Assembly (NCBI GenBank): GCA_031460175.1
Contig: JAVKGW010000001.1
Span: forward strand, 403,021 to 467,020
From: Candidatus Sysuimicrobium tengchongense
GTDB taxonomy: Bacteria; Sysuimicrobiota; Sysuimicrobiia; Sysuimicrobiales; Sysuimicrobiaceae
Length of the DNA stretch: 64,000 nt
Direction: 5' to 3'
In this document: positions 1,203-64,000 of the stretch, piece by piece
How the letters are laid out: each line of letters starts with the position of its first letter
Numbering within the stretch: position 1 is the first letter of the stretch
The notes under the pieces: generated by a model
What the model saw: the letters and a program-made list of their open reading frames with translations, nothing else
Databases searched by the model: none
What the model was told of the DNA's origin: nothing
Made by a program: the position numbers and the translations under genes

Positions 1203-1211
1203 GGCCCCCTC

Positions 1212-8308: not shown

Positions 8309-8344
8309 CCCCGCGCGCCCCCGGCGCGCTACACTCGGGAGGGC

Positions 8345-8872
8345 ATGGGGCGTTGGTCCTCCGTCCTGCTGGTGGCCTGCCTGGGACTCCTGGCCTGCCA
8401 GAGTCCCCGCACATCGCTCGTGGAGTACCGGAACGCGGAACTGGGCATCGCCCTCCGCCACCCCCAGGGCTGGGACGTTCTCGTCGCGCCGGAGGGGAAC
8501 TGGGTCCAGATCGTCCCGTCCGGGGCGGGACCCCACCCGGATCCGTACCGGTACGCGGAGTTCATCAGCGTGCGGGTGTTGGTTGGCCAGGTTTCTTCCT
8601 CCGAGGAGGTCCTCCGGCAGCTCGCCTTCTCCCTCCTTCCCTTCCACGGGGTGGCGAAGTTCCAGCGGGAGGAGGTTCCGGGACCCGAGCGCTACCGCTT
8701 CGAGGGGACCGGAACCGCGGCGGAGGCCCAGTGGGCGGGGATCGGACTCCTGGTGGTGGACCCCGGGCGCGTCGTGCACGTGGTGTGCGCAAAGCCCGTC
8801 GAGCGGTGGCGTCAGGGGCAGCGGGAGTGCGACGCGGTCATCGGGAGCGTGCAACTGCTCACCGGGCGGTAG
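8345..8872 (+). CDS. Putative lipoprotein
   Basis: Signal peptide with lipobox (LLVACLGLLAC|Q) and a GGGAGGG Shine-Dalgarno 6 nt upstream of the ATG. Confidence 0.55.
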   Translation: MGRWSSVLLVACLGLLACQSPRTSLVEYRNAELGIALRHPQGWDVLVAPEGNWVQIVPSGAGPHPDPYRYAEFISVRVLVGQVSSSEEVLRQLAFSLLPFHGVAKFQREEVPGPERYRFEGTGTAAEAQWAGIGLLVVDPGRVVHVVCAKPVERWRQGQRECDAVIGSVQLLTGR

Positions 8873-9647
8873 GCGGGAGGACGTGGGTCTGGACGACGCG
8901 GCCGCCCCCGTGCCGGGCGATCCGCTCGCCGAGGGTCCGCACGTGATCCGCCATCCGGTGAGCGGGATATGAGAGGGGCGCAAAGATCACCGCGAGGCAC
9001 CGGCGCGTGCCTTCCGTGATGGCGGTGCGCAAGGAGTCGTTGGTGGGTCCTCCCATGGGGCCCTCCTCGTCCGCCACCACCAGCCGCCCCTCCGCCCGGA
9101 AGGTGCCCTTTCCTAAGGACTCGTAGGCCTCGCCCGGCCCGCCGAGCCGCACGCAGACCTCTCCCCGCACCCGATCCAGGTCGTAGAGCCCGATGGGAAG
9201 GAGGAACTCCAGGGAGCAGAGGTTCACCACGTCCACCAGCAGGTTGATGCGGGGAAGGCCGTCTCCCCGTAGGACGCGACGCAGGAGGGCCTCTGAGGAG
9301 GGCCGGTTCTTCGTGGGATCCTCCCCCAGCAGCCGGTACAGCTCCCGGGCATGCCTCAGGGCCTCGATCTCGCCGGGCGGCCTGCCCGCGTACTTCCCGC
9401 GGAGGGCCTGCTGGAGCCCCATCGCCTCTGCCCAGACCTCCGGGGCCTCCCGGGTCGTCCGGAGGTCTTCCGCGTGCACCACGCCCAGACGGACCCGCTC
9501 CGCGAGCTCTGGGGCGAGCTGGACCTCCACCCTCGCACCTCCGGAACCGGGATGGTCCTCGATCCGCAGCTTGATTTTGCCCCACGTGTCTGGAATGGTG
9601 GAATGGAGCCCACGCGCGGGAGGGTATGCGCTTGACATGACCGCCAC
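8859..9647 (-). CDS. B3/B4 (tRNA-binding-like) domain protein
   Basis: 262 aa with similarity to the PheT B3/4-domain family. The start is uncertain because it overlaps the divergent MBL start by ~11 nt. Confidence 0.55.
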   Translation of the reverse strand: MAVMSSAYPPARGLHSTIPDTWGKIKLRIEDHPGSGGARVEVQLAPELAERVRLGVVHAEDLRTTREAPEVWAEAMGLQQALRGKYAGRPPGEIEALRHARELYRLLGEDPTKNRPSSEALLRRVLRGDGLPRINLLVDVVNLCSLEFLLPIGLYDLDRVRGEVCVRLGGPGEAYESLGKGTFRAEGRLVVADEEGPMGGPTNDSLRTAITEGTRRCLAVIFAPLSYPAHRMADHVRTLGERIARHGGGRVVQTHVLPPTAR

Positions 9648-10641
9648 CTTCGTGGACGAAGACCTGGTGTGGATCCGGATCCCGGTGCCGTTCCCCGTGG
9701 GTACCGTAAACAGCTACCTCGTGCGCACGGCCTCCGGAGCCCTCCTGATCGACGCGGGGATCTGCACCCCTCAGGCCCTGGAGGCGGTGGAGGAGGCTCT
9801 GGACACCGCGGGGGTCCCGCCGGAGGCCCTCCGGGCCATCGTGCTCACGCACGCGCACCCCGACCACATCGGCCTCGCGGGGCACATCCAGCAGCGGACG
9901 GGAGCCCCCATCTTCCTCTCGCGGAAGGAAGCCGAGACCGCGCGGAGGGTGTGGATGGGTCCCCTGGAGGAACGGCTCAGGACCGTGGCGGAGCTGTACG
10001 CGGCCCACGGCATGCCCGAAGCCCTCATCCAGGAAGTGGTGCAGCGATCCCGAAGGGTTGCCGCACTGGTGGCCCCCTTCCAGGAGGTGCGCGCGCTCGG
10101 CGAAGGCGAGGACTTCGCCCTGGACGGGTTCTCGGCGCGCGTGTACAGCGTCCCGGGACACAGCGACGGACACATCGTCCTCCTGGATCCCCGGGGACGG
10201 ATGTTCTGCGGGGACCATGTGCTCCCCACCATCTCCCCCAACATCGCCCTGTACCCGGGCGCGAGCGAAAACCCCCTCCGGGACTACCTGGCCTCCCTGC
10301 GTAGGGTTCGAGACCTGCCGGTTCGCCTCGCCCTGCCGGGCCACGGGGACCCCTTCGCGGACTGGACCGGCCGCGTGGACTGGCTGCTGGATCACCACGC
10401 CCACCGCCTTGAGGCTATCCTGCGCGCGCTTCCCCGGGCGGGTGCGGCTGCCTACGAAGTGGCGCAGGAGATTTTCGGACCTGATCTCCGGCAGGAGGAA
10501 GCGGCCTTCGCCCTTGCGGAAACCCTGGCACACCTGGAGTGGCTCCGGGCGGAAGGGTACGTGGCCCGCACCGCAAACCACCGGATTCGATACCGACCCT
10601 TGCGGGAATCCGTGGGAATCCGTTTCCGTCCGGAAGAATGA
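9637..10641 (+). CDS. MBL-fold metallo-hydrolase
   Basis: THAHPDHIG metal-binding motif and SVPGHSDGH. The ORF-track frame 9193..10641 carries 148 aa of implausible basic leader, so I start at ATG 9637 (MTATFVDEDLVWIRIPVPFPVGTVNSYLV). Confidence 0.75.
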   Translation: MTATFVDEDLVWIRIPVPFPVGTVNSYLVRTASGALLIDAGICTPQALEAVEEALDTAGVPPEALRAIVLTHAHPDHIGLAGHIQQRTGAPIFLSRKEAETARRVWMGPLEERLRTVAELYAAHGMPEALIQEVVQRSRRVAALVAPFQEVRALGEGEDFALDGFSARVYSVPGHSDGHIVLLDPRGRMFCGDHVLPTISPNIALYPGASENPLRDYLASLRRVRDLPVRLALPGHGDPFADWTGRVDWLLDHHAHRLEAILRALPRAGAAAYEVAQEIFGPDLRQEEAAFALAETLAHLEWLRAEGYVARTANHRIRYRPLRESVGIRFRPEE

Positions 10642-36059: not shown

Positions 36060-36749
36060 TCACGGCCCGGATTCCACAGGGTGTGCCACCACCTTATTGC
36101 GCCCAGCTTCCTTGGCCCGGTACAGGGCCGCATCCGCCCGGCGCACGAGGGTCCCCAGGTTGTCGGTGGGACGGAACGCCGCGACCCCGAAGCTGGCGCT
36201 CACCGGGCCGAACTCCGTCACCAGAGAGGCGATCTCCCGCCGGAGCCGCTCCGCCAGCTCGAGAGCACCCCGCAGCGGGGTCTCCGGGAGCAGGAGCAGG
36301 AACTCCTCCCCGCCCCACCGGGCCAGGGAATCCGAGGGGCGGATCGCGCCCTGCACGGTCCGGGCCACGCTCACCAGCACCCGGTCTCCCGCACCGTGCC
36401 CGTAGCGGTCGTTGATCCGCTTGAAGTGGTCCACGTCGAAGAGCACCACGCTCAGGGGGTGCCCGTAGCGCCGGTGCCGCTCCGCCTCCACATCGAAGGC
36501 GATAAAGATCCCCCGCCGGTTCAATAGACCCGTGAGAGGATCCGTGTTCGCCCGGACCCTCTCGGCCACCAGCTGCCCTTTCACGAGGGAGAGGATCTGA
36601 AGCCATGCGATGAGGGCGACGGCAAACGCCTCCATTCGGAGGAAGGCCACCACGAGGGGCCAGTAGATGGTCGGCCGCACCAGGAAGGGGAGGGAGACGA
36701 GGTAGACCACCAGGTACGCCCTGCGCTTGATGTGCTCCAGCGCCTCCAT
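36060..36749 (-). CDS. Diguanylate cyclase (2 TM + GGDEF)
   Basis: GGDEF domain with an intact GGEEF active site (RWGGEEFLLLL). Confidence 0.75.
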   Translation of the reverse strand: MEALEHIKRRAYLVVYLVSLPFLVRPTIYWPLVVAFLRMEAFAVALIAWLQILSLVKGQLVAERVRANTDPLTGLLNRRGIFIAFDVEAERHRRYGHPLSVVLFDVDHFKRINDRYGHGAGDRVLVSVARTVQGAIRPSDSLARWGGEEFLLLLPETPLRGALELAERLRREIASLVTEFGPVSASFGVAAFRPTDNLGTLVRRADAALYRAKEAGRNKVVAHPVESGP

Positions 36750-46161: not shown

Positions 46162-47316
46162 CTACGATGTCGAGAGCCCCCTCCGGTCATAGGTGTACAC
46201 CTTGCCGTTGGCCCGCAGCCGGACGGGGTTCCGCCAGAGGGTGTACACGGACCGGAGGTACAGGGCGATGCGCTTGGGGTCCAGTTTCTTCCCCTCCTCC
46301 GCGTGCACCAGGGTGAGATCCCGGGGACCCGTGGGGTCCTCCACCTCGATGGGGGGGTCCCCTTTGTAGAGTTTCTGCTGGATGAGCATCTCCTTGACGG
46401 CCCCCACCTCCGTGTTCTTCGTGCGGTCCCGGGGGTCGTACACGAACAGGTCCAGCCGGTGCACGAGCTCCTGGGTGAGCATCTCGTCGATCAGACGCAC
46501 GTCCTCGTAGAATCGGCGGACCTCCAGGGCCTTCTGCCATCCCCAGGTCCGACGGATGTGCTGGAAGAGGGTATAGCCAATCATGTAGGTGGCGGGCCGG
46601 CTGCAGATGGAGATGCTGACCTCCGCCCACTGCCGGGCGCTCACCAGCTCCCTCAGCAGCTCCAGTTCCACGAAAGTGGCCCACCCCTCGTTGATGATGT
46701 GGGTGCGCTGGATGAGATCGAAGTACTCCGCCTCCTGCCGGACCGCCTCCAGGATGTACCGCTCGTAGTCCTGGAGGGGCGCCCGGGCCTCCAGGTAGTA
46801 GATGACCCGGCGGGTGCGCCGGGCGGGGTCCCGCTCGAAGGCGTTCACGCTGGTGGCCACGGTGAGGCAGGCGTCCAGCAACCGCTCCACCGTCTCCCGT
46901 CCGTACTTCTCCTCGAAGGACCGGAAGGTCCGGGCGTGCTGCTCCGCGAGGTTGAGGATGTCCTTGTTGGACTTGCGGAACCAGTGGTTGTTCGCGAAGA
47001 AGTCCGCGTGTCCGTACACGTGTGCGATGACGCAGAGGTTCTGCAGGTGGGTGTTGGTCCGGCGCAGGAAGGCATAGGAGGGACGGGTGTTCAGCACCAG
47101 CTCCAGGATGCTGAACACCGCCTTTGCTTGCTGGGCGTGGATCTCCTTGTAGGCTCCGCCCCAGTACCAGTGCACGAACCGGTTCGGAAGCCCCATGCTG
47201 GCCACTTCCGCGATCTCCTCGCTGTCCGTGAAGCGGAAGACCACGGGATCGAAGCTCAGGCCCAGGTCCCGGGCGAGCGCCTCCACCCGCGTGATGACCG
47301 TCTCGTACTCCCGCAT
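46162..47316 (-). CDS. SpoVR/YcgB-family protein
   Basis: Full-length family match (HWYWGGAYKE, HVYGHADFFANN). Confidence 0.85.
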   Translation of the reverse strand: MREYETVITRVEALARDLGLSFDPVVFRFTDSEEIAEVASMGLPNRFVHWYWGGAYKEIHAQQAKAVFSILELVLNTRPSYAFLRRTNTHLQNLCVIAHVYGHADFFANNHWFRKSNKDILNLAEQHARTFRSFEEKYGRETVERLLDACLTVATSVNAFERDPARRTRRVIYYLEARAPLQDYERYILEAVRQEAEYFDLIQRTHIINEGWATFVELELLRELVSARQWAEVSISICSRPATYMIGYTLFQHIRRTWGWQKALEVRRFYEDVRLIDEMLTQELVHRLDLFVYDPRDRTKNTEVGAVKEMLIQQKLYKGDPPIEVEDPTGPRDLTLVHAEEGKKLDPKRIALYLRSVYTLWRNPVRLRANGKVYTYDRRGLSTS

Positions 47317-48434
47317 CTCGCGGTTCCCCCTTCCCCATTGAGGTAGGGGATGAACTCCCGCAGGGCCTGCCGGATGGAATCCAGGTCCACCAGGTTCACG
47401 AAGGAAAGGTTGGGTCGCCGCCGGCTCAACTCCTGGACATGCTCGCTGAACCCCCCGATCCCCCGACCCCCGGGATTCACGTGCCCGTAGCTGACCACAT
47501 CGAACCGCTCCAGGGCCTCCTCGAACCGCCGCTTGGCCAGCTCAAAGTCCCCGCTGCTCGTTTCTCCGTCCGTGAACAGGAACAGGTACTTGTCGTACTC
47601 GCTCACCCCCTCCAGGAGCTCCATGGCCTTCTCCAGCCCCGCGCTGATGTGGGTCCCACCACTGCTTTCGACGGAAAAGAACTCGTCCCGGGTCTTCTCC
47701 TCCGCCACGTCCTGGAACACCACGTACCGGCGCAGGTTGGTGGGATAGCGGCGCTCCAGGGCGTACCAGAGGAGGAAGATCATCTTCCGGACCAGGGCCA
47801 GGTAATCTCCCCGCATGGAGCCGGAGATGTCCAGCACGTAGATCTCCAGGGAGCGATGGTTCCGATCCGCGGCCGGGTCCTCCACGAAGTACCAGCCGTC
47901 CAGCCGTAGGTCCACGTCGTACTCTGCCACTCCCCGCTCCCGGATGTTCCGGAGGAGGCTCGTGACCATGGTCTCCTCCAGGTTGAGGTCCGCGGCCAGC
48001 CCCCACCGGTCCAGGTCGTCCAGCTCGAGCAGGTCCTCCGTCTCCACTTCCCCGCCCCGGCTCACGTGGTGCAGGGCCGGCAGCTGCAGCTCCTCCAGGA
48101 GCACTTCCTGGGCCAGGCGCACGAACTCCTCGAAGTCCAGCTCGACCCGTAGCTCCTTGCCGTGGTGGTCTCCCCCCAATAGCCCCCCGACCGCGTACAC
48201 CTCCTCCCCCCCTTGCCCTCCCGCGCCCTGTCCTTGTCCCGCGCCCTGGGCCAGAAACCGCTCCTCTTCCCCGTACCGGAGGGTGGGGAGGTCCAGGGTG
48301 GTGATCTGGGTCTTCACCTTCCCGTCGATCACCAGTTCCTTCTGCTGGATGAGCTCGTGGAGGTTCTGCTTCAGGTACTCCCGCAGGAGCTGGTCGTGCT
48401 TGTGCTCCGCGATCCGGGCCCGGTGGACGCGCAT
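47256..48434 (-). CDS. YeaH/YhbH (DUF444, vWA-like) protein
   Basis: Family N-terminus MRVHRARIAEHKHDQLL. The start overlaps the prkA stop. Confidence 0.85.
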   Translation of the reverse strand: MRVHRARIAEHKHDQLLREYLKQNLHELIQQKELVIDGKVKTQITTLDLPTLRYGEEERFLAQGAGQGQGAGGQGGEEVYAVGGLLGGDHHGKELRVELDFEEFVRLAQEVLLEELQLPALHHVSRGGEVETEDLLELDDLDRWGLAADLNLEETMVTSLLRNIRERGVAEYDVDLRLDGWYFVEDPAADRNHRSLEIYVLDISGSMRGDYLALVRKMIFLLWYALERRYPTNLRRYVVFQDVAEEKTRDEFFSVESSGGTHISAGLEKAMELLEGVSEYDKYLFLFTDGETSSGDFELAKRRFEEALERFDVVSYGHVNPGGRGIGGFSEHVQELSRRRPNLSFVNLVDLDSIRQALREFIPYLNGEGGTARCGSTRRSSRGWRRSPGTWA

Positions 48435-48436
48435 GT

Positions 48437-50098
48437 CTACACGCTCCGCCCGATGATCTTGAGCAGACTCCGGGCGCACACCTCGCAGTACCCGTATTCC
48501 TCGATGGCGGTGCGGTACAGGGTCTGCAGCAGGGCCCGGCTCTGCGGGTCCATCTCCTCCGTCTTGTCGTACAGGCGCAGGCAGTTCTTGATCTTGTTGA
48601 ACACCACCTCGTTGATGGCCCCCCGCAGGTGTTCGTTTTCCGTGTAGGGCAGGCTCACGAGCTCTTCCTTGCGCTCCACGAGCACGTTCTCGAAGGCCAG
48701 GCGTCCCTGTCGGCTGATCTGACGCTTCGCGATGAGGATCCCCTCCACCTCGTCCAGCAGCTCCTTCTCCCGCTCCGCCAGCGGTTCCCCCAACACGTGC
48801 CGGCTCACCGCGTCCAGGTAGTTCCGGTAGAGGTTCTGGCCGTACTCGAAGAACTGGGTGGGCACGATGCGCTCCACGATGAGGGCGATCTTGCCCTGAA
48901 TGAACTCCATCTTGGTCTCCTCGAACTGGCGCAGGAGCTCCTTCAGGTTCAGGTCCTTCATGGACTGATGCTCGAAGGTGCGCTCGATGGCCTCGGAGAT
49001 GAGTTCGAGATCCAGGCAGGTGTCCGCCTTCGCATAGGCGTAGGAGAAGGCGTCCTCGAAGAACCGGGGGCTCAGACCCCGCATCCCCCCGGATTCTTCC
49101 CGGGTCTTCAGGGCGTAGCGAGCGGCCAGCTCGTACACGTCCTGAGGCGCGTGCTTGCGCTCCCCGCGCCGTCGGTTGGCCCGCTCCACGAGCGTCCGGT
49201 AGATCTGCATCTCCCCCGCGAGGTCCATGTTGTACGGAAAGTCGATCTTGTGGATGCGACCCCGCAGGGGCTCCATGATGTCTTCCTGGAGGAAGACGTT
49301 GTACTCGGGGTAGTTCGTGTGCCCGATGACCACCAGATCCACGTGTACCGTGGGGAAGTTGGCGAGATCCACCCGCTTGGACTGGATGAGCTCCAAGAGC
49401 AAGGACAGCAGCTGCCGACGGCTCTTGAAGACCTCCGTCCAGTCCAGGATCCCCCGGTTCGCCCAGATGATCTTGCCCTCGAAGTCGTAGGCATCCGGAT
49501 CGTAGGTGGAGCCACGCTCCTTGAGCATGGCGAAGTTGATGTTGCCCACGAAGTTGGTGATGTCCTCCCGGCGCAGGTCCGTGGGAGTGTGCTTGGCGAT
49601 CCCCACCTTGTGGCGGGCGGAGATGTAGATCCTCTTCACGGGCACCGGCTCCCACCCTCCGCACCGACGGATGAGCCGCTCGCACACGGGGCAGGGCACG
49701 GCCTCCTCATGCCAGTACAGTCCGTACTGATCCAGCACCTCATGGGGGACGAGGTCGAAGGGGTGCTGGTGGAAGGGGCAACCCTCCACCGCGTACAGGA
49801 TTCCTGCCTCCGTCCGGGAGTACTCCTCCAGTTTCCGCTTCAGCTTGTCCACGGTCATGCTCTTGCCGGACCCCTGTGGACCCACCAGCAGGAGCAACCG
49901 CCGCTCCATGGACATGGCGTATCCCCGGAAGTACGAGACGATGTCCTGGAGCTGCTTGCCCATCCCGTAGATGCCTTCGAAGACATTCTCCGGCCCAAAG
50001 TACTCGATCATGTCCGCGATGTAATGATGCGTGGTGCGGGTGAGCCGCTCGTCGGCCCGTGCCGCCTGCAGGTAATCCCCCACCGTCCGGATCTCCAT
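48437..50098 (-). CDS. prkA: PrkA/YeaG-family AAA+ serine protein kinase
   Basis: Walker A GPQGSGKS, a PrkA C-terminal domain, and a GGGGAAG Shine-Dalgarno. Confidence 0.9.
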   Translation of the reverse strand: MEIRTVGDYLQAARADERLTRTTHHYIADMIEYFGPENVFEGIYGMGKQLQDIVSYFRGYAMSMERRLLLLVGPQGSGKSMTVDKLKRKLEEYSRTEAGILYAVEGCPFHQHPFDLVPHEVLDQYGLYWHEEAVPCPVCERLIRRCGGWEPVPVKRIYISARHKVGIAKHTPTDLRREDITNFVGNINFAMLKERGSTYDPDAYDFEGKIIWANRGILDWTEVFKSRRQLLSLLLELIQSKRVDLANFPTVHVDLVVIGHTNYPEYNVFLQEDIMEPLRGRIHKIDFPYNMDLAGEMQIYRTLVERANRRRGERKHAPQDVYELAARYALKTREESGGMRGLSPRFFEDAFSYAYAKADTCLDLELISEAIERTFEHQSMKDLNLKELLRQFEETKMEFIQGKIALIVERIVPTQFFEYGQNLYRNYLDAVSRHVLGEPLAEREKELLDEVEGILIAKRQISRQGRLAFENVLVERKEELVSLPYTENEHLRGAINEVVFNKIKNCLRLYDKTEEMDPQSRALLQTLYRTAIEEYGYCEVCARSLLKIIGRSV

Positions 50099-51035: not shown

Positions 51036-51689
51036 ATGGAGCTGGCGAGGGTCCACGGATTTCTGTTCTTTCAGGTTCCGACCGGGGACCGAGCGCGACA
51101 CGGAGGCGGGCGGATACGGGAGGCCTTCCACATGGCCGCGGGGCGGGACGGCGTGGTGGCGGTTTACGCCTACAGCCTCTTGGGATTCCGGGCGGACGCG
51201 TCCCTCGGAGTGTGGATCGCGGCTTCGCAGGTGGAGGCGTATCGAGCCGCCGCCCGATGCCTCCTGCAGGCGGATCTCCCCTTACGGGATGCCCTGTGGG
51301 GCTTCGTCCGTCCCTCCCCGTACACGGGCCGCAGCGGCACCACCATGCGGGTTCCGGGGCCGCGCAAGCAATACCTCGTGGTCTATCCTTTCACGAAGAC
51401 CCACGGGTGGTACCAGCTGCCCGTGGAGGTCCGGCGCGCCATGATGACGGAACACGCCCGGGTGGGACACGCGTACGAGGACATCGACCAGCTGTTGCTG
51501 TACGCTACCGGGCTTGCGGACTGGGAGTTCGTGGTGGCCTACGAGACGGACGACCTGGAACGGTTCAGCGATCTCGTGGTGGCCATGCGCGGCACCGCGG
51601 CTCGGCCGTACACCCTGAGGGACACTCCCATCTACACCGCCCGGTACGGCGGCGTGGACGAGGTGCTGGAAGAGGTGTTCGGCCCGTGA
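51036..51689 (+). CDS. hemQ: Chlorite-dismutase-family coproheme decarboxylase (HemQ/ChdC-like)
   Basis: Family motifs (YLVVYPFTKTHGWYQLP...EHARVGHAY), a GGGAGGGAGAG Shine-Dalgarno, and a heme-gene neighbourhood. Confidence 0.7.
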   Translation: MELARVHGFLFFQVPTGDRARHGGGRIREAFHMAAGRDGVVAVYAYSLLGFRADASLGVWIAASQVEAYRAAARCLLQADLPLRDALWGFVRPSPYTGRSGTTMRVPGPRKQYLVVYPFTKTHGWYQLPVEVRRAMMTEHARVGHAYEDIDQLLLYATGLADWEFVVAYETDDLERFSDLVVAMRGTAARPYTLRDTPIYTARYGGVDEVLEEVFGP

Positions 51690-52177
51690 CGGATCCCCTC
51701 CGGGTGCTCCTGGACCTGCTGGAGGAAAACCGGGTCATGACCCTGGCGACCGCGGGGCCCGAGGGGCCTTGGGCTGCCCCCGTCCTGTACGCCTGGGAGG
51801 GGACGGCCCGCCCCCTCCTCTATTTCATGTCACGGCTGCAGACCCGCCATGCCCGGGACATCCTCCGCACCCCACAGGTGGCCGCGGCCATCCACCCGCC
51901 GTACACCCGACCCCTGCGGGGCGTGCAGTTGAGCGGAACAGCGGAGCCGCTGCGGGGAGTCGCCGCCGCGCATGCCCTCGAGCTCTACCTCGCCCGGTTC
52001 CCCTCCGCCCGCGGGCGGTTTCCCGCGGAAGCGGTCCTCGCGGAGCGGTCCGAGGTCCGGTTCTTCCGGCTTACCCCTCAACGGATCTTCGTCCTGTCCG
52101 AAGCGCACTTCGGCTGGGGCGTGCGGCGGGAAGTCCTCCTCGAACCGGAACGCGTCGGGGAGCGGGCATCCGGGTAG
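51686..52177 (+). CDS. Pyridoxamine 5'-phosphate oxidase-fold (FMN-binding split barrel) protein
   Basis: GTGA overlap with the hemQ stop. PNPOx-like N-terminus (LLDLLEENRVMTLATAGPEGPWAAPVLYA). Confidence 0.6.
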   Translation: MTDPLRVLLDLLEENRVMTLATAGPEGPWAAPVLYAWEGTARPLLYFMSRLQTRHARDILRTPQVAAAIHPPYTRPLRGVQLSGTAEPLRGVAAAHALELYLARFPSARGRFPAEAVLAERSEVRFFRLTPQRIFVLSEAHFGWGVRREVLLEPERVGERASG

Positions 52178-52189
52178 GCCCGCAGGTCG

Positions 52190-52591
52190 GTGAAGGTCGC
52201 CGTTTTCCTGCACGTCCTGGCCGCGGCCACCTGGGTCGGTGGGAACGTGCTCTTCTTCCTGGCCGCTCCCCTCCTGCGTCGGGAGGACCCCGGAGGCTTT
52301 CGGGCGCTCGGGCGGGTCTTCCGAACGGTTTCGTGGGCGGCGGTGGCGGTGCTGGTGCTCACGGGCCTGTGGTTCCTCGCCACGGGATGGGACCCCCGCG
52401 GTGGCGTCCTGGCGGTGAAACTCCTCCTGGTGACCGCGGCCCTCGTCCTCAAGGTCGCCCACGACTTCTGGATCGCGCCCCGGGCCGTGCACCGGCGCGG
52501 TCGGTTCGTCTCCCTCGCCACCGGGATTGGCCGCACGAACCTCGCCCTGCAGCTCTTCATCCTGTACCTCTCGACCCGCCTGGTCCGATGA
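52190..52591 (+). CDS. Small 4-TM membrane protein, HemJ/CopD-like
   Basis: 133 aa. N-terminus (VFLHVLAAATWVGGNVLF) resembles HemJ-type proteins. ATGA overlap with hemE. The assignment is tentative. Confidence 0.45.
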   Translation: MKVAVFLHVLAAATWVGGNVLFFLAAPLLRREDPGGFRALGRVFRTVSWAAVAVLVLTGLWFLATGWDPRGGVLAVKLLLVTAALVLKVAHDFWIAPRAVHRRGRFVSLATGIGRTNLALQLFILYLSTRLVR

Positions 52592-53613
52592 GGGACCGGA
52601 TTCTCCGCGCCGCCCGAGCCGAGCCCGTGGACACCACGCCCGTGTGGTTCATGCGGCAGGCGGGCCGCTACCTCCCGGAGTACCGGGCCCTGCGGCGTCG
52701 GTACCCCATGCGGGAGCTCCTCCGAACCCCCGAGCTCGCCGCGGAGATCACCCTGATGCCCCTGCGTCGCCTGGACGTGGATGCCGCCATCCTCTACAGC
52801 GATCTCCTCGTGCCCCTGTGGGGCATGGGGCTGGACTTCCACCTCGCGGAGGGAAGGGGGCCCGTGGTGCGGGTGGAGGTGGAACGCCTGGCGCACCTCC
52901 CGGAGCTCGATCCGGACCGGGTCCGGTTTACCTTCGAAGCCATCCGCCTTCTGCGGAGCGCCCTGGACCGGCCCCTCATCGGATTCGCCGGGGCTCCCTT
53001 CACCGTGGCCGCCTACCTTTTAGAGGGACAGACGAGCCGTGACTGGCCCCGCACCCGCGCCTTCCTCCACCGGCATCCGGACGTGTGGCACCGGCTCCTG
53101 GACATCCTGGCCCGAAACCTCGGCCTGTACCTCCGGGCCCAGGTGGAGGCCGGAGCGCAGCTCGTGCAGATCTTCGACTCGTGGGTGGGGGTGCTCTCCG
53201 GGGAGGACTTCGTGGCTTTCGTCCGGCCGTATCTCGTGGCCATGCTGGAGACGGTGGGCGCCGCCGTTCCCCGCATCTACTTCTCCACGGGGAGTTCTCA
53301 CCTCCTCGGGCACCTCGCGGATCTCCCCGCGGAGGTGATCGGGGTGGACTGGCGGGTGCGCCTTCAGGACGCCGCGGTCCGGTCCGGGAAGTCCGTGGTG
53401 CAGGGAAACCTCGACCCCGCCCTCCTCCTGGGAGAGGAGGCGCGCCTCCTGTCCCGCACAGATGCCATTCTTGAAGAGGGAAGGCGCCTCGCGGGGCACA
53501 TCTTTAACCTGGGACACGGGGTCCCGCCGGAGGCGGATCCCGGTCGGCTCGCGATGCTGGTGCACTTCGTGCACGAACGCGGTAGGAGGGAGGGAAGGCA
53601 TGCGGCCCACTGA
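52588..53613 (+). CDS. hemE: Uroporphyrinogen decarboxylase
   Basis: PVWFMRQAGRYLPEYR motif and full-length collinearity with the family. Confidence 0.9.
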   Translation: MRDRILRAARAEPVDTTPVWFMRQAGRYLPEYRALRRRYPMRELLRTPELAAEITLMPLRRLDVDAAILYSDLLVPLWGMGLDFHLAEGRGPVVRVEVERLAHLPELDPDRVRFTFEAIRLLRSALDRPLIGFAGAPFTVAAYLLEGQTSRDWPRTRAFLHRHPDVWHRLLDILARNLGLYLRAQVEAGAQLVQIFDSWVGVLSGEDFVAFVRPYLVAMLETVGAAVPRIYFSTGSSHLLGHLADLPAEVIGVDWRVRLQDAAVRSGKSVVQGNLDPALLLGEEARLLSRTDAILEEGRRLAGHIFNLGHGVPPEADPGRLAMLVHFVHERGRREGRHAAH

Positions 53614-54523
53614 ACCCGTGGGAGTGCTGCTCATGGCGTACGGGACGCCGCGCAGCCTGGAGGAGGTGGAGGCGTACTTCACGCACATCCGCAGGGGAAG
53701 ACGGCCCTCGGACGAGGAGCTGGAGGACCTCCGGGAGCGGTACCGCAGGATCGGTGGCACCTCGCCCCTGCGGGCCGTCACGGAGGCCCAGGCCGCCTCC
53801 TTACAGGCCGTCCTGGACCGCCGGGCGGCCGGGAGGTTCCGGGTGTACCTGGCCATGAAACACGCCGACCCCTTTATCCCGGACGTGACGCGCCGCATGC
53901 TCCGGGACGGCGTGCGGGAGATGGTGGCGCTCGTGCTGGCGCCGCATGAGTCCCGCATGATCCTCGACGAGTACCTGGAGTATGCGGCCCCCGTCCTCGC
54001 GGAGTTCCCGCAGGTCCGCCTGCACCCCGTGCGCACCTGGCATCTCAACCCCGGCTACCTCGCGGCCCTGGAGGGGCGCATCCGGAAGGCCCTCGGGGAA
54101 CTCGCGGACCCTGTCGCGGTGGTCTTCACCGCCCACAGCCTGCCCGAGCGCATCCTGGAGTGGGGTGACCCATACCCGCACCGGCTGCGGGAGACCTGTG
54201 AGGCTCTGGCCGTCCGCCTGGGGCTCCCGCGGTGGCGGTTCGCGTACCAGAGCGCGGGTCACGGACCGATCCCGTGGCTGGGCCCGGACATCCTGGAGGT
54301 CCTGCCGGAGGTCCGGGCGGAGGGGGCCAGCGCGGTGCTGGTGGTCCCCATCGGGTTCGTGGCGGACAACCTGGAGATCCTGTATGATCTGGACATCGAG
54401 GCCGCGGAGCACGCCCGAGAGTTGGGCCTTACCTTCCGACGCACGGAGTCCCTCAACGCGGACGGAACCCTCATCGAGGGACTCGCGGACGAGGTGGAAC
54501 GGGCCGTGGGGATGCGCGCGTAG
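53600..54523 (+). CDS. hemH: Ferrochelatase (likely coproporphyrin ferrochelatase)
   Basis: VLLMAYGTP, HSLP and other family motifs. Overlaps hemE by 14 nt. Confidence 0.85.
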   Translation: MRPTEPVGVLLMAYGTPRSLEEVEAYFTHIRRGRRPSDEELEDLRERYRRIGGTSPLRAVTEAQAASLQAVLDRRAAGRFRVYLAMKHADPFIPDVTRRMLRDGVREMVALVLAPHESRMILDEYLEYAAPVLAEFPQVRLHPVRTWHLNPGYLAALEGRIRKALGELADPVAVVFTAHSLPERILEWGDPYPHRLRETCEALAVRLGLPRWRFAYQSAGHGPIPWLGPDILEVLPEVRAEGASAVLVVPIGFVADNLEILYDLDIEAAEHARELGLTFRRTESLNADGTLIEGLADEVERAVGMRA

Positions 54524-59045: not shown

Positions 59046-59219
59046 GATCCCACCTCGCGTCTTTGCGTTCTCCCCTCGTCCCATCTGCCCTGCTCGCAAG
59101 GAGTTCGCTTCGCCGGAGCAAAACCCTCCTCGAGGCTTCCTTCGGAAAGCCCATCCGAAGATGGGCGCCCCGGATCGTGCTCGCCGCCCCAAGGAGGACT
59201 CCGAAGGGAGCGGTTGCCC

Positions 59220-59645
59220 TTACGGGAGCGTGACCTCGATCCCGCCCGCCCGGCTCACCTGCACGATCCCCGTGCCCGCGCGGTTCTGGAGCCGGATGGT
59301 GTACGTCTCATCCGGCTTCCCGAAGGCGTCGAAGGTGACGGTGACGTCCGCGGTAGGAGCAAGTCCCCGGGGGAGTTCGCCCCTGTGGTCGAACCCCCCG
59401 CCGCTCCGCCGCACCCAGTACGTGGAGCTCCCCGCGGTGAGGGCCACGGTGTAGGGTTTGCGATCGGCCTTGGCCCGCTCCTGGGCCTCCCGGAGGTCGG
59501 TGGCCAGTTGCTCCGTGCCGTAGCGCAGGTCCTGCATGGCAATGCTGCGCCGCCAGCTGGGGAGGGCGAGTCCGAGCAGGAGGGCCACGAGGGCCAGGGC
59601 GGCCACGAGTTCCAGGAGGCTCAGACCCCGTTCCCGGGATCTCAT
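59220..59645 (-). CDS. Type IV pilus minor pilin / pseudopilin (GspH-FimT family)
   Basis: Prepilin leader and N-methylation motif (RG|LSLLELVAALALVALL). ATGA overlap with the upstream gene. Confidence 0.65.
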   Translation of the reverse strand: MRSRERGLSLLELVAALALVALLLGLALPSWRRSIAMQDLRYGTEQLATDLREAQERAKADRKPYTVALTAGSSTYWVRRSGGGFDHRGELPRGLAPTADVTVTFDAFGKPDETYTIRLQNRAGTGIVQVSRAGGIEVTLP

Positions 59646-61873
59646 GGCGGGGAGAGCTCCTGCCAGCGGGGCTTCTGCCCCGCGAGGCCCTGGGCCTGGA
59701 TCTGGGGGAGGGTGGTGGTGGGGAAGTAGGGGGGCGCAAACCCGCGGCTGAGCCTCCGGTCGTAGCGGTAGTTGTCCGCATACCCGCTGACGAGCCGCCC
59801 GCCGGAGTCCGCGCACCCGGAGACGCCCGCGTACTCCGAGATGAGCCCTCCCAGGAGGTTCAGCTTGCCCTGGGCAGGCCTCCCGCACAGACCTTCCACC
59901 ACCTGCTCGCTACGGACCCCGTCGTCTACTCCCGGCTGGCCCGCCATGAACACCCCCTGGAGCACGAGGTCGTTGGGGGTACCGGTGGGAATCCGGATCC
60001 TCCCGCGCGGGGTGTACAGGCCCAAGATGTTGGTGGGGTTGTCCGTGGGGTCGTAGATGTTCGGCGGCCGTTCGTACCGGAGGTGGTTCGTGATGTACAC
60101 GTCCCCGCGGGCGGCGATCATCACCTGCTCCCGTTCCTCCACCTGGCCCCAAAGACCGTTCCCCGATCCTGTACCGATCCTCCCGTGCACGTAGATGACG
60201 GTGGCGTTCGGGAAGATGTCACTTCCTTGAAAGCCCTTGGGGACGCCCTGGAAGGTGCGGGTCTGGGGATCCGGCCAAGAAGGGTTTGTGACGGTCGTCC
60301 GGTTCGTTACCCGGTCGATCTCCACGGTCACCACCTGACCGTTGGCGTGCTCGAACCGGTAGTAAGCCCGGTCCGTACCGGATGCCGGGCAGTACGGATA
60401 CCCGGGCGTTCCCGGTGGGCAGTTGCTGATGGTGAGACTTCGAAGATCTCCCTGCACGTAGATCCCGCCGAGGAGAGGTTCTCCCGGATCAGAGGTGCCG
60501 TTGTTGTTTCGGTCGTCCACCGGCAAATAGACCCCGTCGGGCACCGAGCTCGCGTTGTCGGGGAGCTCCGGAATCCGCTCCCGGACCGCCCGGTTCCACT
60601 GCGCATCGGTCCAGGAATTCGGGCCCGTATCCTGCGGGTCCAGCCCCAGGCTCACCGCCCGCTGGGCGATGGCGTCCCGGTCGGTGACCCGTCCCGGGGG
60701 GTTGAGGGGCACCACGATGGGATCGATGGTGGGTGTGGTGGGATCCGCGTCGAACCCCCGGGTGAAGTTGGCGGCCGGGTTGTCGGCGTCGTCACCGTAG
60801 TTCGTCGGAGTGCAGTCCGGGAGGACGGGCGCTGCCCTCCGCTGACCCCCGACCACCCACTCGTTGGCCTCCAGCTCTGTCTCCACCGGGCCGGATCCCG
60901 AGATCCGGCGGAACCCCGCGCGGGTGCTGGTGCTGGTGAGCCGCGTGGCCTGGATGCGGCCGGGGTCGCAGGGGGTGGAGGCATCGGGGGTCCCGAACTT
61001 GGGGAACCCCCAGAACCAGAACTGCCCGTTGGTGTGCACCGGTCCGTCGTAGCTCTCCTCGTGGCCGAAGTAGACCCGACTGCCACTGCTTAAGCTAAAG
61101 ATATGCGTGAAGACCAGCCATTGGGCAAAACTCTGACTCCCCAGGACCGCCCGAAGCTGGCCCTCCAGCGTCACCCGCCTCCGAAATTGAGGATCCACGT
61201 ATCCCTCCGCCACCACGCGGTACTCCAGGGGGATCAGGTAGGTGGTGGGCGCCGCTCGGTCCCGGTGCACCGGACATTCGTTGGTCTCGCTGGGCGGTTC
61301 CTCCCGATCCCGACAAACCCGCAGCCCTGCCTTCGCGGGACTCCATACCACCACCACGGCCCGGTACCGGCCGTTCCCCAGTGCGTTCGGAGGCACGGAG
61401 TCCGTGGAACTTCCGGGAGGGGGGAGCAGGGCCTCATGCGGGGGCGGGGCACCGGACCCGCTTGAGAGGAACTCCAGCTTGCGGTACGGGGAGCTGAGGG
61501 ACCAGTTGACCCGGAACGCCACCCAGCTGGTGGAAGGGCCGGCGGTCACCCCCAGCAAAGATCCATCGATCCACAGCCTCGTGAAAAACTCCATGGGGCT
61601 TTGGGTGGTAAACCACGTGTACATCTCAGTTGGACTCGTACGGAGCGTGGCCTTGTCCGCCGGGTTCGCGTTCACCAGGGCCATGAGGGCCGCCCGGGCG
61701 GCCCAGGCCCCGCCCTCCGCGATGGCCAGGCTCTGAGTTCCCCGGTACCGCACCCGGCTGATCCCCCCTTCCTGCCCGCTGAGGTAGAGCACCAACCCTC
61801 CGAGCAGGGTCAGGATCAGGATCACCACCAGGACCGAGATCAGGGCCACGCCCCGCTCGTCCTTCCGCTTCAT
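59642..61873 (-). CDS. Large PilX_N-domain minor pilin-like protein (743 aa), possible PilX-PilY1-type tip protein
   Basis: The PilX N-terminal signature MKRKDERGVALISVLVVILILTLLGG is followed by a ~700-aa extracellular region rich in D/N/G/T/P (DDRNNNGTSDPGE, calcium-site-like). Confidence 0.6.
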   Translation of the reverse strand: MKRKDERGVALISVLVVILILTLLGGLVLYLSGQEGGISRVRYRGTQSLAIAEGGAWAARAALMALVNANPADKATLRTSPTEMYTWFTTQSPMEFFTRLWIDGSLLGVTAGPSTSWVAFRVNWSLSSPYRKLEFLSSGSGAPPPHEALLPPPGSSTDSVPPNALGNGRYRAVVVVWSPAKAGLRVCRDREEPPSETNECPVHRDRAAPTTYLIPLEYRVVAEGYVDPQFRRRVTLEGQLRAVLGSQSFAQWLVFTHIFSLSSGSRVYFGHEESYDGPVHTNGQFWFWGFPKFGTPDASTPCDPGRIQATRLTSTSTRAGFRRISGSGPVETELEANEWVVGGQRRAAPVLPDCTPTNYGDDADNPAANFTRGFDADPTTPTIDPIVVPLNPPGRVTDRDAIAQRAVSLGLDPQDTGPNSWTDAQWNRAVRERIPELPDNASSVPDGVYLPVDDRNNNGTSDPGEPLLGGIYVQGDLRSLTISNCPPGTPGYPYCPASGTDRAYYRFEHANGQVVTVEIDRVTNRTTVTNPSWPDPQTRTFQGVPKGFQGSDIFPNATVIYVHGRIGTGSGNGLWGQVEEREQVMIAARGDVYITNHLRYERPPNIYDPTDNPTNILGLYTPRGRIRIPTGTPNDLVLQGVFMAGQPGVDDGVRSEQVVEGLCGRPAQGKLNLLGGLISEYAGVSGCADSGGRLVSGYADNYRYDRRLSRGFAPPYFPTTTLPQIQAQGLAGQKPRWQELSPP

Positions 61874-61886
61874 CTTCTCCCCTCCC

Positions 61887-62492
61887 TCACGGGCACGTGG
61901 TCCCGTACTGCCGCAACGCCACATCGCCGATCATCTCCCGCTCCACCGCAGGCGTCCCCATCCGGGTCTCCACCTCCATCCGGATCCGGACGCGGATCTG
62001 GGCCACGCTCCCCGGATCCGCGGCCACCTCCCCCAGGGAGGTGTAGTACTCCAGGGCGAAGGAGGGCGCCGCGCCGCCCGCCGGCAACTTCGCCAGGACC
62101 TCCGGCGGCCCGAAGGGTTCCGAACCGGCGCCGTCCGGGTCCTCTGCCCGGGTGATGGCCCGGTCTGCAGGATCATAGGCGAACCGCACATAGTAGGGCG
62201 TGCTCGTGCGGGGGCTACTTGGAACGCACAAGGCCACGGAGGTGGCGCTCGGAGCCGGGGAAGGGAGGACCCTCGCCGCCCACCTCGCCTCGTCCACGAT
62301 CCCGTCGAGGGCGGCCCGTACCTGCGTCTGCGTGCGCAGCACCGCCCCCGTATCCCGGGCCGCGGTGACGCCTGTATCCACCAGGGCGTAGATCCCCACG
62401 GTCACGAGGGCGAGCAGGGTCAGGGCCAGCAGGAGCTCCAGCAGGGTGAGCCCGGCCAGACCTAGGAGGAAACCGAAGCGCCTACTGGTCAT
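61887..62492 (-). CDS. Type IV pilus minor pilin (PilW-like)
   Basis: Prepilin motif G|LTLLELLLALTLLALV. Confidence 0.6.
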   Translation of the reverse strand: MTSRRFGFLLGLAGLTLLELLLALTLLALVTVGIYALVDTGVTAARDTGAVLRTQTQVRAALDGIVDEARWAARVLPSPAPSATSVALCVPSSPRTSTPYYVRFAYDPADRAITRAEDPDGAGSEPFGPPEVLAKLPAGGAAPSFALEYYTSLGEVAADPGSVAQIRVRIRMEVETRMGTPAVEREMIGDVALRQYGTTCP

Positions 62493-62904
62493 CGCACGCG
62501 CTCACGAACTCCACGAGGGGCTCGGTGTCCGGAGCTCCGGTCCGCCACACCCGTACCCGGGGGAAGACGATGGAGAGTGCAGAGCCCGGGTCCAGCCGGT
62601 CTACCGCCACGTCGAACCGGTACGGCCCGATGTTGGCGATGCGGTGGTAGGGGGTGGGAAGGGGGATCGGGGTCCGCGGGAGGTCCGTCCAGTTCACCCC
62701 CCACACGCAGTTGGGACTCGCCCGGATCTGCTCCAGCACCTGAGTTGCGATGGTGGTGGCGGCCGCGGTCTCGTTGGCTCGGGCCGTGAACCGCATGCCG
62801 GCCAGGAAGGTGTACATCAAAAAGACCGCCACCAGGCCAAACAGCACGATGGCCACGAGGATCTCCACCAGGGTGAGCCCAGCTTCCCGCCTCCCGCCGC
62901 GCAT
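62482..62904 (-). CDS. Type IV pilus minor pilin (PilV-like)
   Basis: Prepilin motif AG|LTLVEILVAIVLFGLV. Internal ATG start. Overlaps the next gene by 11 nt. Confidence 0.6.
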   Translation of the reverse strand: MRGGRREAGLTLVEILVAIVLFGLVAVFLMYTFLAGMRFTARANETAAATTIATQVLEQIRASPNCVWGVNWTDLPRTPIPLPTPYHRIANIGPYRFDVAVDRLDPGSALSIVFPRVRVWRTGAPDTEPLVEFVSACDDQ

Positions 62905-63238
62905 CACCGCCCCTCGAAGACACAAAACCCGGCCCACTGGTCTGGCCGGGTTCGCCACTGGCTCCGGACGGCACCAGGCGACCACGTCCGCACCGCCCTT
63001 CCTCGCCTCCAGACCTACCCTGATCCCCCAGGCGTCAGAGCAACTCCTGTGCCACCTTTGACCCCGGTCCCGCGGGGGCCTGCTCCCCGAACCTCCCCTT
63101 GCCCTTTATATGCCCCAAACCTCCGAATTCCCGCTCGCGAATCCCCCATTGGTTATGAAAATTCCTTCGATCGGAGGATGGGCAGCCCGGCGGGAGGGCT
63201 GGTTTAGTCAGGTTAATTCCGGGCCGGAGGTGCGATCC

Positions 63239-64000
63239 GTGGTCAGATGGCTTTTCCTCGGCTTCGGGCTTGGGGTAGTCCTCGTCTTCTCCGCCGGTGA
63301 GGCTTCCGCCGCCCTCCTGGCCCGGGGGGTGCCGGTGGTGGCCCTGGGGTCCAGTACCCCGGCAGTCCCTAACTGTCCCACCCTGGAGGGAGAGGTGTGC
63401 TACGACCCTACCACCGGGCGGATCGGATTCTACATCCCCCTCAGTCCGGCCTACAGCGGGATCTACGGGGTGACCCCGGTACCGTTCTCGTGGTCTACGA
63501 GGACCGCCGGCACGACCCCCGACTCCCGCTGGGGTCCCTTCACCAACCGGAACGCCCTCCGGATGTTCCTCCGGTTCTCGCCCGTGGCCCTCCCGGTAGG
63601 CTCTGCAACCCTCACCTTCCGGTTCGAGGATCTGGACCTCGGTGGGGCCAACGATCCCGGGAAGTTCTTTGAGGCCATCGCCTTCTACGATGCCTCCGGG
63701 AACCCCGTCTCCGGCCCCATCACGCTCATGAGCGGGAGCTGCGCGCCGATCCCCTGCACCCTCACCGGAGACTCCCGCTACCAGACCATCGTCTTCTCCG
63801 ACTCCCCCCGGCTCCGCGCCCTGCTCACGGGGGACCCGTTTTTCGTGGAGCTCCGGTTCGGGAGCCGTGCGGGTGGGGACCACAAGAAGAAGTTCGTCAA
63901 TACCAAGGAGTTCCTTGAGGCCACGCTGGAGACCGACCCCCTTCCTCCGCCTCGCGTCCCGGAACCGCCGAGCGTGCTCCTCTGGGGCGCAGCCCTGGCC
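63239..64000 (+). CDS. Secreted protein with C-terminal PEP-CTERM-like sorting motif (partial, runs to window end)
   Basis: Not in the ORF track because no stop lies inside the window. GTG start after a GGAGG Shine-Dalgarno. Signal peptide WLFLGFGLGVVLVFSAGEASA. The last visible residues are ...RVPEPPSVLLWGAALA (PEP followed by a hydrophobic stretch). Confidence 0.45.
   Translation, partial: MVRWLFLGFGLGVVLVFSAGEASAALLARGVPVVALGSSTPAVPNCPTLEGEVCYDPTTGRIGFYIPLSPAYSGIYGVTPVPFSWSTRTAGTTPDSRWGPFTNRNALRMFLRFSPVALPVGSATLTFRFEDLDLGGANDPGKFFEAIAFYDASGNPVSGPITLMSGSCAPIPCTLTGDSRYQTIVFSDSPRLRALLTGDPFFVELRFGSRAGGDHKKKFVNTKEFLEATLETDPLPPPRVPEPPSVLLWGAALA

Follow-up and report, generated by a model that had tools for sequence, protein, structure and literature searches.

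Background

Whether a pilus is assembled at all, and what its tip attaches to, depends on minor pilins. The capping and functionalisation of pili in bacteria without PilY1 has been addressed only recently, in work on ComZ and on cyanobacterial PilX. ComZ, which is tied to DNA uptake, carries a solenoid as an insertion between the final two strands of its pilin fold (PMC6561018). Bulky beta-solenoid tip pilins of the PilX/ComZ kind have been proposed as substitutes for PilY1 (PMC6561018; bioRxiv 10.64898/2026.02.12.705559), and absence of the glutamate at position 5 (Glu5) is the hallmark of the capping GspK/PilX class (bioRxiv 10.64898/2026.02.12.705559). Control of pili by cyclic di-GMP (c-di-GMP) at the RNA level is known from Clostridioides difficile, where the class II riboswitch Cdi-2-4 has been shown experimentally to turn on pilA1 by preventing termination (PMC6366702). 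Here we describe a locus of Candidatus Sysuimicrobium tengchongense (assembly GCA_031460175.1, contig JAVKGW010000001.1, positions 403,021 to 467,020) in which a predicted c-di-GMP-II riboswitch precedes four minor-pilin genes, one of them encoding a giant of 743 amino acids (aa) from the DUF4900 family. The whole stretch of 64,000 nt that was analysed is called the window, and positions are those of the window unless stated otherwise. A preliminary description of this DNA, made from the sequence alone, is referred to where our results bear on it.

Results

A predicted riboswitch in the leader of the pilin operon

The leader of the pilin operon contains a c-di-GMP-II aptamer (Table 1) that ends 31 nt before the ATG of the pilV-like gene. 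It is the sole riboswitch in the window, with E = 3e-9 when the whole window is counted. Orthologous RF01786 matches were obtained in two related loci (L012, 53.6 bits; L014, 54.4 bits), where the aptamer, the hairpin downstream of it and a motif upstream of it are kept while the rest of the spacer diverges. In a third locus (L135) the aptamer and the terminator are likewise kept while their flanks diverge. A covariance model was constructed from the aptamers of the window, L012 and L014, which led to 28 metagenome relatives, and the 23 distinct ones were tested for covariation. In the resulting alignment, which was fitted to the model and is hence biased toward the structure, strong covariation is evident in stems P1 and P3: paired cells make up 88%, versus 62% in shuffles, with a score of 0.551 versus 0.154 that none of 500 shuffles reached. 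Changes on both sides were found in 127 cells versus 46, and slid controls were all paired at 43% or less. On inspection, the segment GGUCGCC in the P3 loop proves complementary to GGCGA-A-CC in the tail, a pairing that we take to be at the pseudoknot position of the c-di-GMP-II class.

The terminator-like hairpin comprises 10 bp followed by UUUUGUGU, and its 5' arm consists of aptamer residues 67-76, which are the tail and the first 3' bases of P1. The hairpin appears in both the minimum-free-energy and the centroid folds, and its U-tract is kept in L012 and L014. Scans of positions 59100-63400 for sigma-70 promoters and simple terminators returned nothing, the terminator having been missed because its loop is 9 nt long.

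Approximately 20 nt upstream of the aptamer lies a putative sigma-54-type promoter, the one exact match to TGGCAC-N5-TTGCW in the 64-kb window, where 0.01 would be expected by chance. The two orthologous loci, L012 and L014, carry the forms TGGCAT-N5-TTGCT and TGGTAC-N5-TTGCT, such that GG/GC and the spacing are kept, and the alignment is lost further upstream of the motif. Since the motif is absent upstream of the riboswitches of other lineages, it is specific to the class II clade. The pilin operon is probably sigma-54-dependent.

The preliminary description had proposed an AT-rich region of approximately 330 bp from which the pilin operon and the divergent gene might be co-regulated. The spacer between the pilV-like gene and the divergent gene does measure 334 bp; its AT enrichment is only mild (64.8% GC versus 69.8% in the window), and the idea of co-regulation was not supported, as the sigma-54-type promoter, the riboswitch and the terminator are all directed toward the pilin operon alone. 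Some 100-170 bp upstream of this promoter, where the spacer is richest in AT, lies an imperfect 17-nt direct repeat (TTGGTTATGAAAATTCC at 63149-63165 and TTAGTCAGGTTAATTCC at 63204-63220, 55-nt spacing). Any role of this repeat as an activator binding site is speculative, and the repeats of the spacer in general are short and of doubtful meaning. Elsewhere in the window (36060-36749, minus strand) is a gene for a 229-aa GGDEF-domain protein, a putative diguanylate cyclase, and its presence indicates that c-di-GMP signalling exists in this organism.

Table 1 Coordinates of the pilin locus and of its divergent neighbour
Feature	Position in window	Strand	Details
Sigma-54-type promoter (putative)	63039..63054	-	TGGCACAGGAGTTGCT; -24 GG / -12 GC
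c-di-GMP-II riboswitch aptamer (Rfam RF01786)	62935..63019	-	54.5 bits vs gathering score 53.5; E = 3.6e-10; model positions 1-84 of 84
Terminator-like hairpin	62917..62953	-	GAACCCGGCC / 9-nt loop / GGCCGGGUUU, then UGUGUCUU
PilV/GspI-like minor pilin, 140 aa	62482..62904	-	leader MRGGRREAG/LTLVE; N_methyl 26.3 bits, above cut-off
PilW/GspJ-like minor pilin, 201 aa	61887..62492	-	motif ...GLAG/LTLLE; GspJ and N_methyl matches weak
DUF4900 giant, 743 aa, PilX/GspK position	59642..61873	-	PF16241 61.3 bits; E = 1.2e-16; residues 216-295
FimU/GspH-like minor pilin, 141 aa	59220..59645	-	leader MRSRERG/LSLLE; N_methyl 23.4 bits, above cut-off
Secreted 277-aa protein, PEP-CTERM-like C-terminus	63239..64000	+	cut by window end; stops 72 nt beyond

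Four coupled minor-pilin genes

The minus-strand block 59220-62904 consists of four head-to-tail genes whose junctions are overlapping or tightly coupled, in the order PilV/GspI-like, PilW/GspJ-like, 743-aa giant and FimU/GspH-like (V-W-X-H). The start of the pilW-like gene overlaps the end of the pilV-like gene by 11 nt, GGGAGGGGAG and then the ATG of the giant's gene follow the pilW-like gene, and the giant's stop codon (TGA) shares the tetranucleotide ATGA with the start codon of the gspH-like gene. The four genes are translationally coupled. The three small proteins carry the canonical prepilin motif G/(L)(T/S)L(V/L)E (slash, cleavage site), with Glu at +5, behind a short basic leader and at the head of a hydrophobic alpha1 helix. 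Gene order, overlaps and leaders bear out the operon of four successive prepilin-leader genes that had been described. A six-frame scan of the whole window for the motif found no prepilin gene beyond those of the operon, and the Pfam annotation of 7,967-64,000 contained no major pilin or PilY1, in agreement with what the preliminary description had stated for the window.

The PilV, GspJ and GspH class calls combine weak N-terminal hidden Markov model (HMM) matches with protein size and gene order. The best match of the PilV-like protein is TIGR02523 PilV at 32 bits, below its cut-off. The PilW-like protein is sub-threshold for N_methyl and reaches 15 bits with TIGR01711, again below cut-off, and the same is true of the GspH and ComGD matches of the GspH-like protein (PF12019, 16.6 bits; TIGR01708, 28 bits; ComGD). 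Family profiles of the three small pilins align with pilins of the PDB over the N-terminal helix only. Orthologues of the PilV-like protein were found upstream of DUF4900 genes in many loci, and in at least 20 loci the DUF4900 gene is immediately preceded by a conserved PilW-type partner, of ~181 residues when counted from the Gly of the cleavage site.

The DUF4900 giant

The third gene encodes a protein that clearly passes the gathering score of Pfam DUF4900 (PF16241; 29.4 bits). Its leader, MKRKDERG/VALIS, has Gly at -1 and Ser at +5, and thus no Glu5, as is the case across the family; its N_methyl match is sub-threshold. Among 41 diverse family members, DUF4900 is present in all 41, and PilX_N is matched by 11 (E <= 0.01; best E 2e-8). 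On these profile matches, the giant's N-terminus is PilX-like at the family level and, together with the missing Glu5, upholds the PilX-type N-terminus of the preliminary description.

The family is large. A word-indexed search found 104 close homologues, nearly all labelled DUF4900 or unnamed. In an exhaustive profile search, 1,985 clusters (50% identity) reached E <= 1e-3 and 263 of them E <= 1e-30; most are of 550-700 aa. An identical 743-aa protein is encoded in the metagenome-assembled genome (MAG) GCA_031458615.1 (contig JAVKKC010000001.1; NCBI label Armatimonadota), where subtracting 37,728 from a record position gives the position in the window. Among species representatives, the closest ones with the gene belong to Candidatus Sysuimicrobium and to further MAGs from hot springs, of the CSP1-3 and Armatimonadota lineages. 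A literature search on DUF4900 found nothing related.

The giant was modelled with AlphaFold2 from a 40-sequence alignment, which gave a mean predicted local distance difference test (pLDDT) of 88.4 and a predicted template modelling score (pTM) of 0.83. The model consists of a helix (residues 4-66), a small beta region to ~180, a low-confidence linker (181-205) and a near all-beta body that runs to the C-terminus, and the predicted beta-rich head spans ~540 residues. A Foldseek search of the model against the PDB returned no significant match (best E = 2.7), and no PilY1, ComZ or GspK chain was listed. Profiles of 40 and of 41 family members had no matches among PDB sequences, and the giant matches no NCBIfam model. 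Homology to ComZ was rejected at the sequence level, by phmmer and by the two family profiles against PDB sequences, and Foldseek was likewise negative.

Eight cysteines are found in the giant, for which we guess the pairs 187/200, 302/354, 485/495 and 663/687; four disulfides in the head are likely. The D/N/G-rich calcium-site-like motifs of the preliminary description come down to a single EF-hand-like loop, D454-R-N-N-N-G-T-S-D-P-G-E465 (D-x-N-x-N-G-x-x-D-x-x-E), which is kept in 37 of 40 family members. The cysteines and the loop fit an extracytoplasmic, possibly calcium-binding module. The motifs GPVHTNG (277-283) and YDRR...PPYFPTT, near the C-terminus, are strongly conserved. One of the 41 family members carries a CBM_5_12 chitin/carbohydrate-binding module (E = 2e-8), which is consistent with a modular adhesive tip role for the DUF4900 family.

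The cassette in relatives

Loci of Sysuimicrobiota, Armatimonadota and ANGP1 share the arrangement PilV (~130 aa)-PilW (~181)-DUF4900, frequently with GspH (~135) behind it, and Omnitrophota loci have one extra pilin in front of it. One Omnitrophota genome has the cassette flanked by PilC on one side and by PilM-PilN-PilO-secretin on the other, and this gene context is the best evidence that the cassette would serve a type IVa pilus. One locus (L005) has two DUF4900 cassettes within 8 kb, at 1-1719 (minus strand) and 6790-9986 (plus strand) of the locus; its c-di-GMP-I aptamer stands on the plus-strand cassette only, which suggests paralogous tip sets under different control.

On megaplasmid pTT27 of Thermus thermophilus HB27, a model organism that can be cultured and transformed, three prepilin genes are followed by a 633-aa DUF4900 gene. 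This cassette (TT_RS10510-10525; L059 3623-7386; NC_005838.1 68624-72387) is separate from the chromosomal pilA1-3/comZ/pilA4 locus, and the Thermus DUF4900 protein gave no match to ComZ. Only 75 nt separate the cassette from the divergent gene upstream, which leaves no room for a riboswitch.

c-di-GMP riboswitches across homologous loci

We surveyed 45 homologous loci at Rfam gathering thresholds and found a same-strand c-di-GMP riboswitch no more than 2.7 kb upstream of the DUF4900 gene in 25. The riboswitch belongs to class II in the clade of the window and to class I or I-GGC elsewhere, including ANGP1 and Omnitrophota. It stands directly before the first pilin gene or the DUF4900 gene in 19 of the 25 positive loci. 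Of all riboswitch matches, 25/36 fall in 10.6% of the searched sequence versus 3.8 expected (nominal P ~7e-17, for loci that are not phylogenetically independent).

Fervidifonticultor-type Armatimonadota (L025 3484-5385; also L018, L024, L028, L031 and L032) show a different layout, in which a c-di-GMP-I-GGC aptamer comes first and is followed by genes for a sigma-70-family sigma factor and a Roadblock/LC7 protein directly upstream of PilV-PilW-DUF4900. Two or three c-di-GMP-I-type aptamers occur within 14 kb in these loci.

A metagenome search for class II riboswitches before pilin cassettes yielded one further locus, L135. Other class II aptamers (L096, L101, L063; L064, L065, L073, L083, L090, L100, L106, L112; L127) precede non-pilin genes. 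Their targets are proteins that end in LPKTG or LPTTG, a hydrophobic stretch and basic residues (sortase-type signals), which echo the class II regulon of C. difficile; a family of ~200 aa with signal-peptide-like N-termini that ends in ...LLLTSP; and, behind tandem aptamers, a protein with an EAL-like C-terminal motif. Besides the LPXTG and EAL-type proteins, the targets can be described as proteins of ~110-230 aa, several with a signal-peptide-like start.

The divergent gene and the surroundings

The gene on the plus strand encodes a secreted protein whose signal peptide ends in ...GEASA/A and whose C-terminus consists of VPEPPSVLLWGAALALVGLRRGR and a 15-residue Pro/Arg tail; on the contig beyond the window, the protein ends in ...VPEPPSVLLWGAALALVGLRRGRNSATPPRAAPRPRPR before its stop codon. 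The PEP-CTERM architecture that had been attributed to it, a signal peptide with a three-part C-terminus ([VI]P[EL]P, hydrophobic stretch, basic residues), was recovered in 7/7 homologues, two of which carry a precomputed PF07589 match. TIGR02595 gives 13.8 bits for the whole protein (cut-off 16) and 18.7 bits for the C-terminal 44 residues alone, and PF07589 gives 18.5 bits versus a cut-off of 20.7. An AlphaFold2 model of this protein was poor (pLDDT 55.7) and contains several beta strands; its Foldseek matches are to beta-sandwich domains of the collagen-adhesin and carbohydrate-binding kinds, each with E > 1e-3, and give no more than a hint.

It is possible, if on balance doubtful, that this end is a mere C-terminal membrane anchor or a decayed signal that no exosortase processes. 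The whole-protein score below cut-off points that way, as do the absence of a call by the Prokaryotic Genome Annotation Pipeline (PGAP) and the lack of any further PEP-CTERM-like open reading frame in ~1.4 Mb of retrieved loci. So does the tail after the basic cluster, which overlaps the neighbouring permease gene (176 nt) and is missing from a 73%-identical orthologue that ends in RRRGML. Against an anchor alone, [VI]P[EL]P, the hydrophobic stretch and RRR are kept in 7/7 homologues down to 34% identity, and two homologues pass PF07589.

The permease in question is a ModB-like ABC permease, encoded convergently at 63897-64000 on the minus strand and on (L001 7207-7977), whose gene accounts for the 176-nt overlap with the divergent gene; its last ~50 residues are of low complexity. 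The transporter block to which it belongs (a helix-turn-helix/periplasmic-binding-protein regulator, a binding protein and the permease) is absent from syntenic L012, so that it has the look of an inserted segment by which the ends of both genes were changed.

Apart from the present locus, only the closest relative, L012, has a homologue of the PEP-CTERM-like protein next to the pilin operon; L014 and L135 lack the gene, and one distant homologue stands beside rhamnose-synthesis genes. The window contains no riboswitch that faces the PEP-CTERM-like gene. With a gene pair that is not conserved and no riboswitch toward the neighbour, nothing points to functional coupling. The divergent gene, which encodes a secreted protein with a PEP-CTERM-like anchor, is unrelated to the operon and transcribed separately, and its adjacency to the operon is a local accident of synteny.

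The surroundings were taken from a precomputed Pfam annotation that covers positions 7,967-64,000 of the window plus ~8 kb beyond. They hold housekeeping functions only: maeB, heme synthesis, prkA-yeaH-spoVR, murT/gatD and a molybdate-type ABC transporter. The prkA-yeaH(DUF444)-spoVR stress-kinase cluster lies at 46162-50098 (minus strand) and a coproporphyrin-type heme block (chlorite-dismutase-like HemQ, URO-D, ferrochelatase) at 51036-54523 (plus strand), both an ordinary housekeeping context. Neither PilY1 nor an exosortase was seen in this annotated stretch.

Discussion

We consider it probable that positions 63054-59220 form one transcription unit, gated by a c-di-GMP riboswitch, that encodes a type IVa pilus tip complex with the DUF4900 giant. 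Transcription from the sigma-54-type promoter would produce an mRNA whose 5' end folds into the c-di-GMP-II aptamer. The aptamer tail and the 3' strand of P1 would double as the 5' arm of the terminator hairpin downstream. As the folded aptamer and the terminator would then be mutually exclusive, the ligand-bound fold should prevent termination and act as an ON switch. Ligand binding is predicted, from the arrangement of these elements, to place the pilin operon under c-di-GMP control with ON polarity. The products would be the core set of minor pilins by which a type IVa pilus is primed and capped, four in number, namely the PilV/GspI-like and PilW/GspJ-like proteins, a subunit in the PilX/GspK position and a FimU/GspH-like adaptor. 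The giant may occupy the distal tip and act there as a plug or an adhesin; no PilY1 is seen in this lineage, and a tip adhesin is plausible. High c-di-GMP would thereby lead to synthesis of the tip complex and to pili that carry a DUF4900 tip.

Several observations count against this proposal. The riboswitch exceeds its gathering score by only 1 bit, and the three orthologous aptamer copies are nearly identical and so provide no covariation of their own. PilX_N (PF14341) gives the giant 14.5 bits versus a cut-off of 25.5, and the PilV, PilW and GspH class assignments are all below curated cut-offs. In the ~64 kb of annotated contig there is no pilus motor, platform, secretin, prepilin peptidase or major pilin. 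Among the related loci, 20/45 have no riboswitch, and seven of these (L015, L016, L017, L020, L021, L029 and L030) are still negative at E <= 0.01; in 6/25 positive loci, sigma-factor and Roadblock genes lie between the riboswitch and the pilins.

The four genes could instead form the pseudopilus tip of a type II secretion system (T2SS; GspH-I-J-K), in which the giant would play the part of GspK and make contact with substrates or with the secretin. The small proteins do have weak GspI, GspJ and GspH matches, the absence of Glu5 is a feature of GspK too, and there are no nearby pilus genes to decide the matter. We nevertheless hold a pseudopilus to be unlikely: PilV is the best match of the first protein, the Omnitrophota cassette sits with PilM_2, PilN, PilO and secretin, which is a type IVa pilus set, and control by a c-di-GMP riboswitch has its precedent in pili.

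An operon for natural transformation, in which the giant would be a ComZ-type DNA receptor at the tip of a competence pilus, strikes us as equally improbable. Operon position and design resemble those of Thermus ComZ, with a large beta-rich domain on a GspK-like pilin that lacks the canonical motif; the lineage is one of hot springs, and Thermus also has a DUF4900 cassette. However, no sequence similarity to ComZ was detected, even for the Thermus DUF4900 protein, no ComZ appeared in the Foldseek search, and ON control by c-di-GMP would point to adhesion or biofilm rather than to DNA uptake.

There is very little to recommend the view that the riboswitch and sigma-54 matches are due to chance or decay and that a single bidirectional control region is shared with the PEP-CTERM gene. 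It could appeal to the 1-bit excess, the empty simple promoter and terminator scans and the short repeats in the upstream half of the spacer. The match is full-length, with a window-wide E = 3e-9, and is kept together with the terminator in L012, L014 and L135; the RNA class covaries, and other c-di-GMP classes occupy the same position in other phyla. Toward the PEP-CTERM gene, by contrast, no riboswitch is directed, and the gene pair is not conserved.

Finally, we hardly credit the reading of the giant that the preliminary description had offered, a PilX-PilY1 fusion in which PilX would bear the beta-propeller and calcium site of a PilY1: the giant's slot just before the pilY1 position of Pseudomonas operons, the lack of a separate PilY1 in the annotated stretch and the one conserved EF-hand-like loop, which presumably recalls the calcium site of PilY1, are outweighed by the absence of any PilY1 match in Pfam or NCBIfam at E <= 0.1, by the 40- and 41-member family profiles without matches to PDB sequences, and by a Foldseek search of the pLDDT-88 model that found no PilY1 fold and nothing below E = 2.7, and without a PilY1-like fold the fusion fails.

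Returning to a riboswitch-gated tip complex, the locus adds to the PilX-tip role a third, large and unstudied family, of ~2,000 clusters at 50% identity and with no solved relative. Tentatively, and at somewhat less than even confidence, we suggest that DUF4900 is a widespread, structurally new tip class that replaces PilY1 in several phyla, most of them uncultured, that non-homologous riboswitch classes (I, I-GGC and II) were recruited independently to the one minor-pilin cassette, and that c-di-GMP directly sets, at the RNA level, the type of tip and thereby the kind of pilus that a shared machine makes, not the amount of major pilin. Since riboswitches of more than one class connect the family with c-di-GMP in several phyla, they offer a simple and testable route from a sessile signal to pilus-tip identity, and the DUF4900 cassette on the megaplasmid of Thermus thermophilus HB27 makes the family genetically testable. 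The ligand that is sensed by the c-di-GMP-I-GGC variant aptamers might also become easier to establish from this gene context. Little is added by the PEP-CTERM neighbour, whose pairing with the operon is not conserved.

Comparison with known systems

The PEP-CTERM/exosortase system (TIGR02595, PF07589) is resembled by the divergent neighbour, which has a signal peptide, VPEP, a hydrophobic helix and RRGR; it differs in its borderline HMM score and its extra 15-residue tail. The Verru_Chthon cassette (TIGR02596-02600) is a compact prepilin-type cassette that includes one very large member. Unlike it, the present cassette has only weak N-terminal matches to Verru_Chthon proteins C and D (13 and 21 bits).

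The FimU-PilV-PilW-PilX-PilY1 complex of Pseudomonas and GspH-I-J-K of the T2SS share with the locus the four structural roles and a capping subunit without Glu5. Here, in contrast, the order is V-W-X-H, there is no PilY1, and the X subunit is three to four times larger. Thermus thermophilus ComZ is alike in that a large beta-rich domain is carried on a GspK/PilX-like pilin without canonical motifs, encoded among minor pilins and argued to be at the tip. The two are unlike in sequence and in Foldseek comparison, where no similarity was found, and ComZ is tied to DNA uptake whereas the DUF4900 cassette is tied to c-di-GMP.

The cyanobacterial PilX beta-solenoid "tip plug" (bioRxiv 10.64898/2026.02.12.705559) is likewise bulky and without Glu5, in a system with no PilY1/PilC and with a dedicated PilV, and there second messengers select the minor-pilin set that is expressed, as is predicted here. 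In that case, regulation is transcriptional (CRP-type regulators, cyclic AMP, c-di-GMP) with no riboswitch, and the giant's model has no ice-binding-protein-like match. The giant would work like ComZ and the cyanobacterial PilX tip plugs, yet is no detectable member of those families.

With Cdi-2-4 of C. difficile the locus shares a class II aptamer in the leader of pilus genes and an ON switch by blocked termination, which is predicted here. It is distinct in that minor pilins, a tip module, would be controlled rather than the major pilin, in that a sigma-54-type promoter precedes the riboswitch, and in its host, an uncultured lineage labelled Armatimonadota or CSP1-3. Bulky tip pilins in the PilX position and control of pili by c-di-GMP riboswitches are both known already, and the locus described here is a variation on both.

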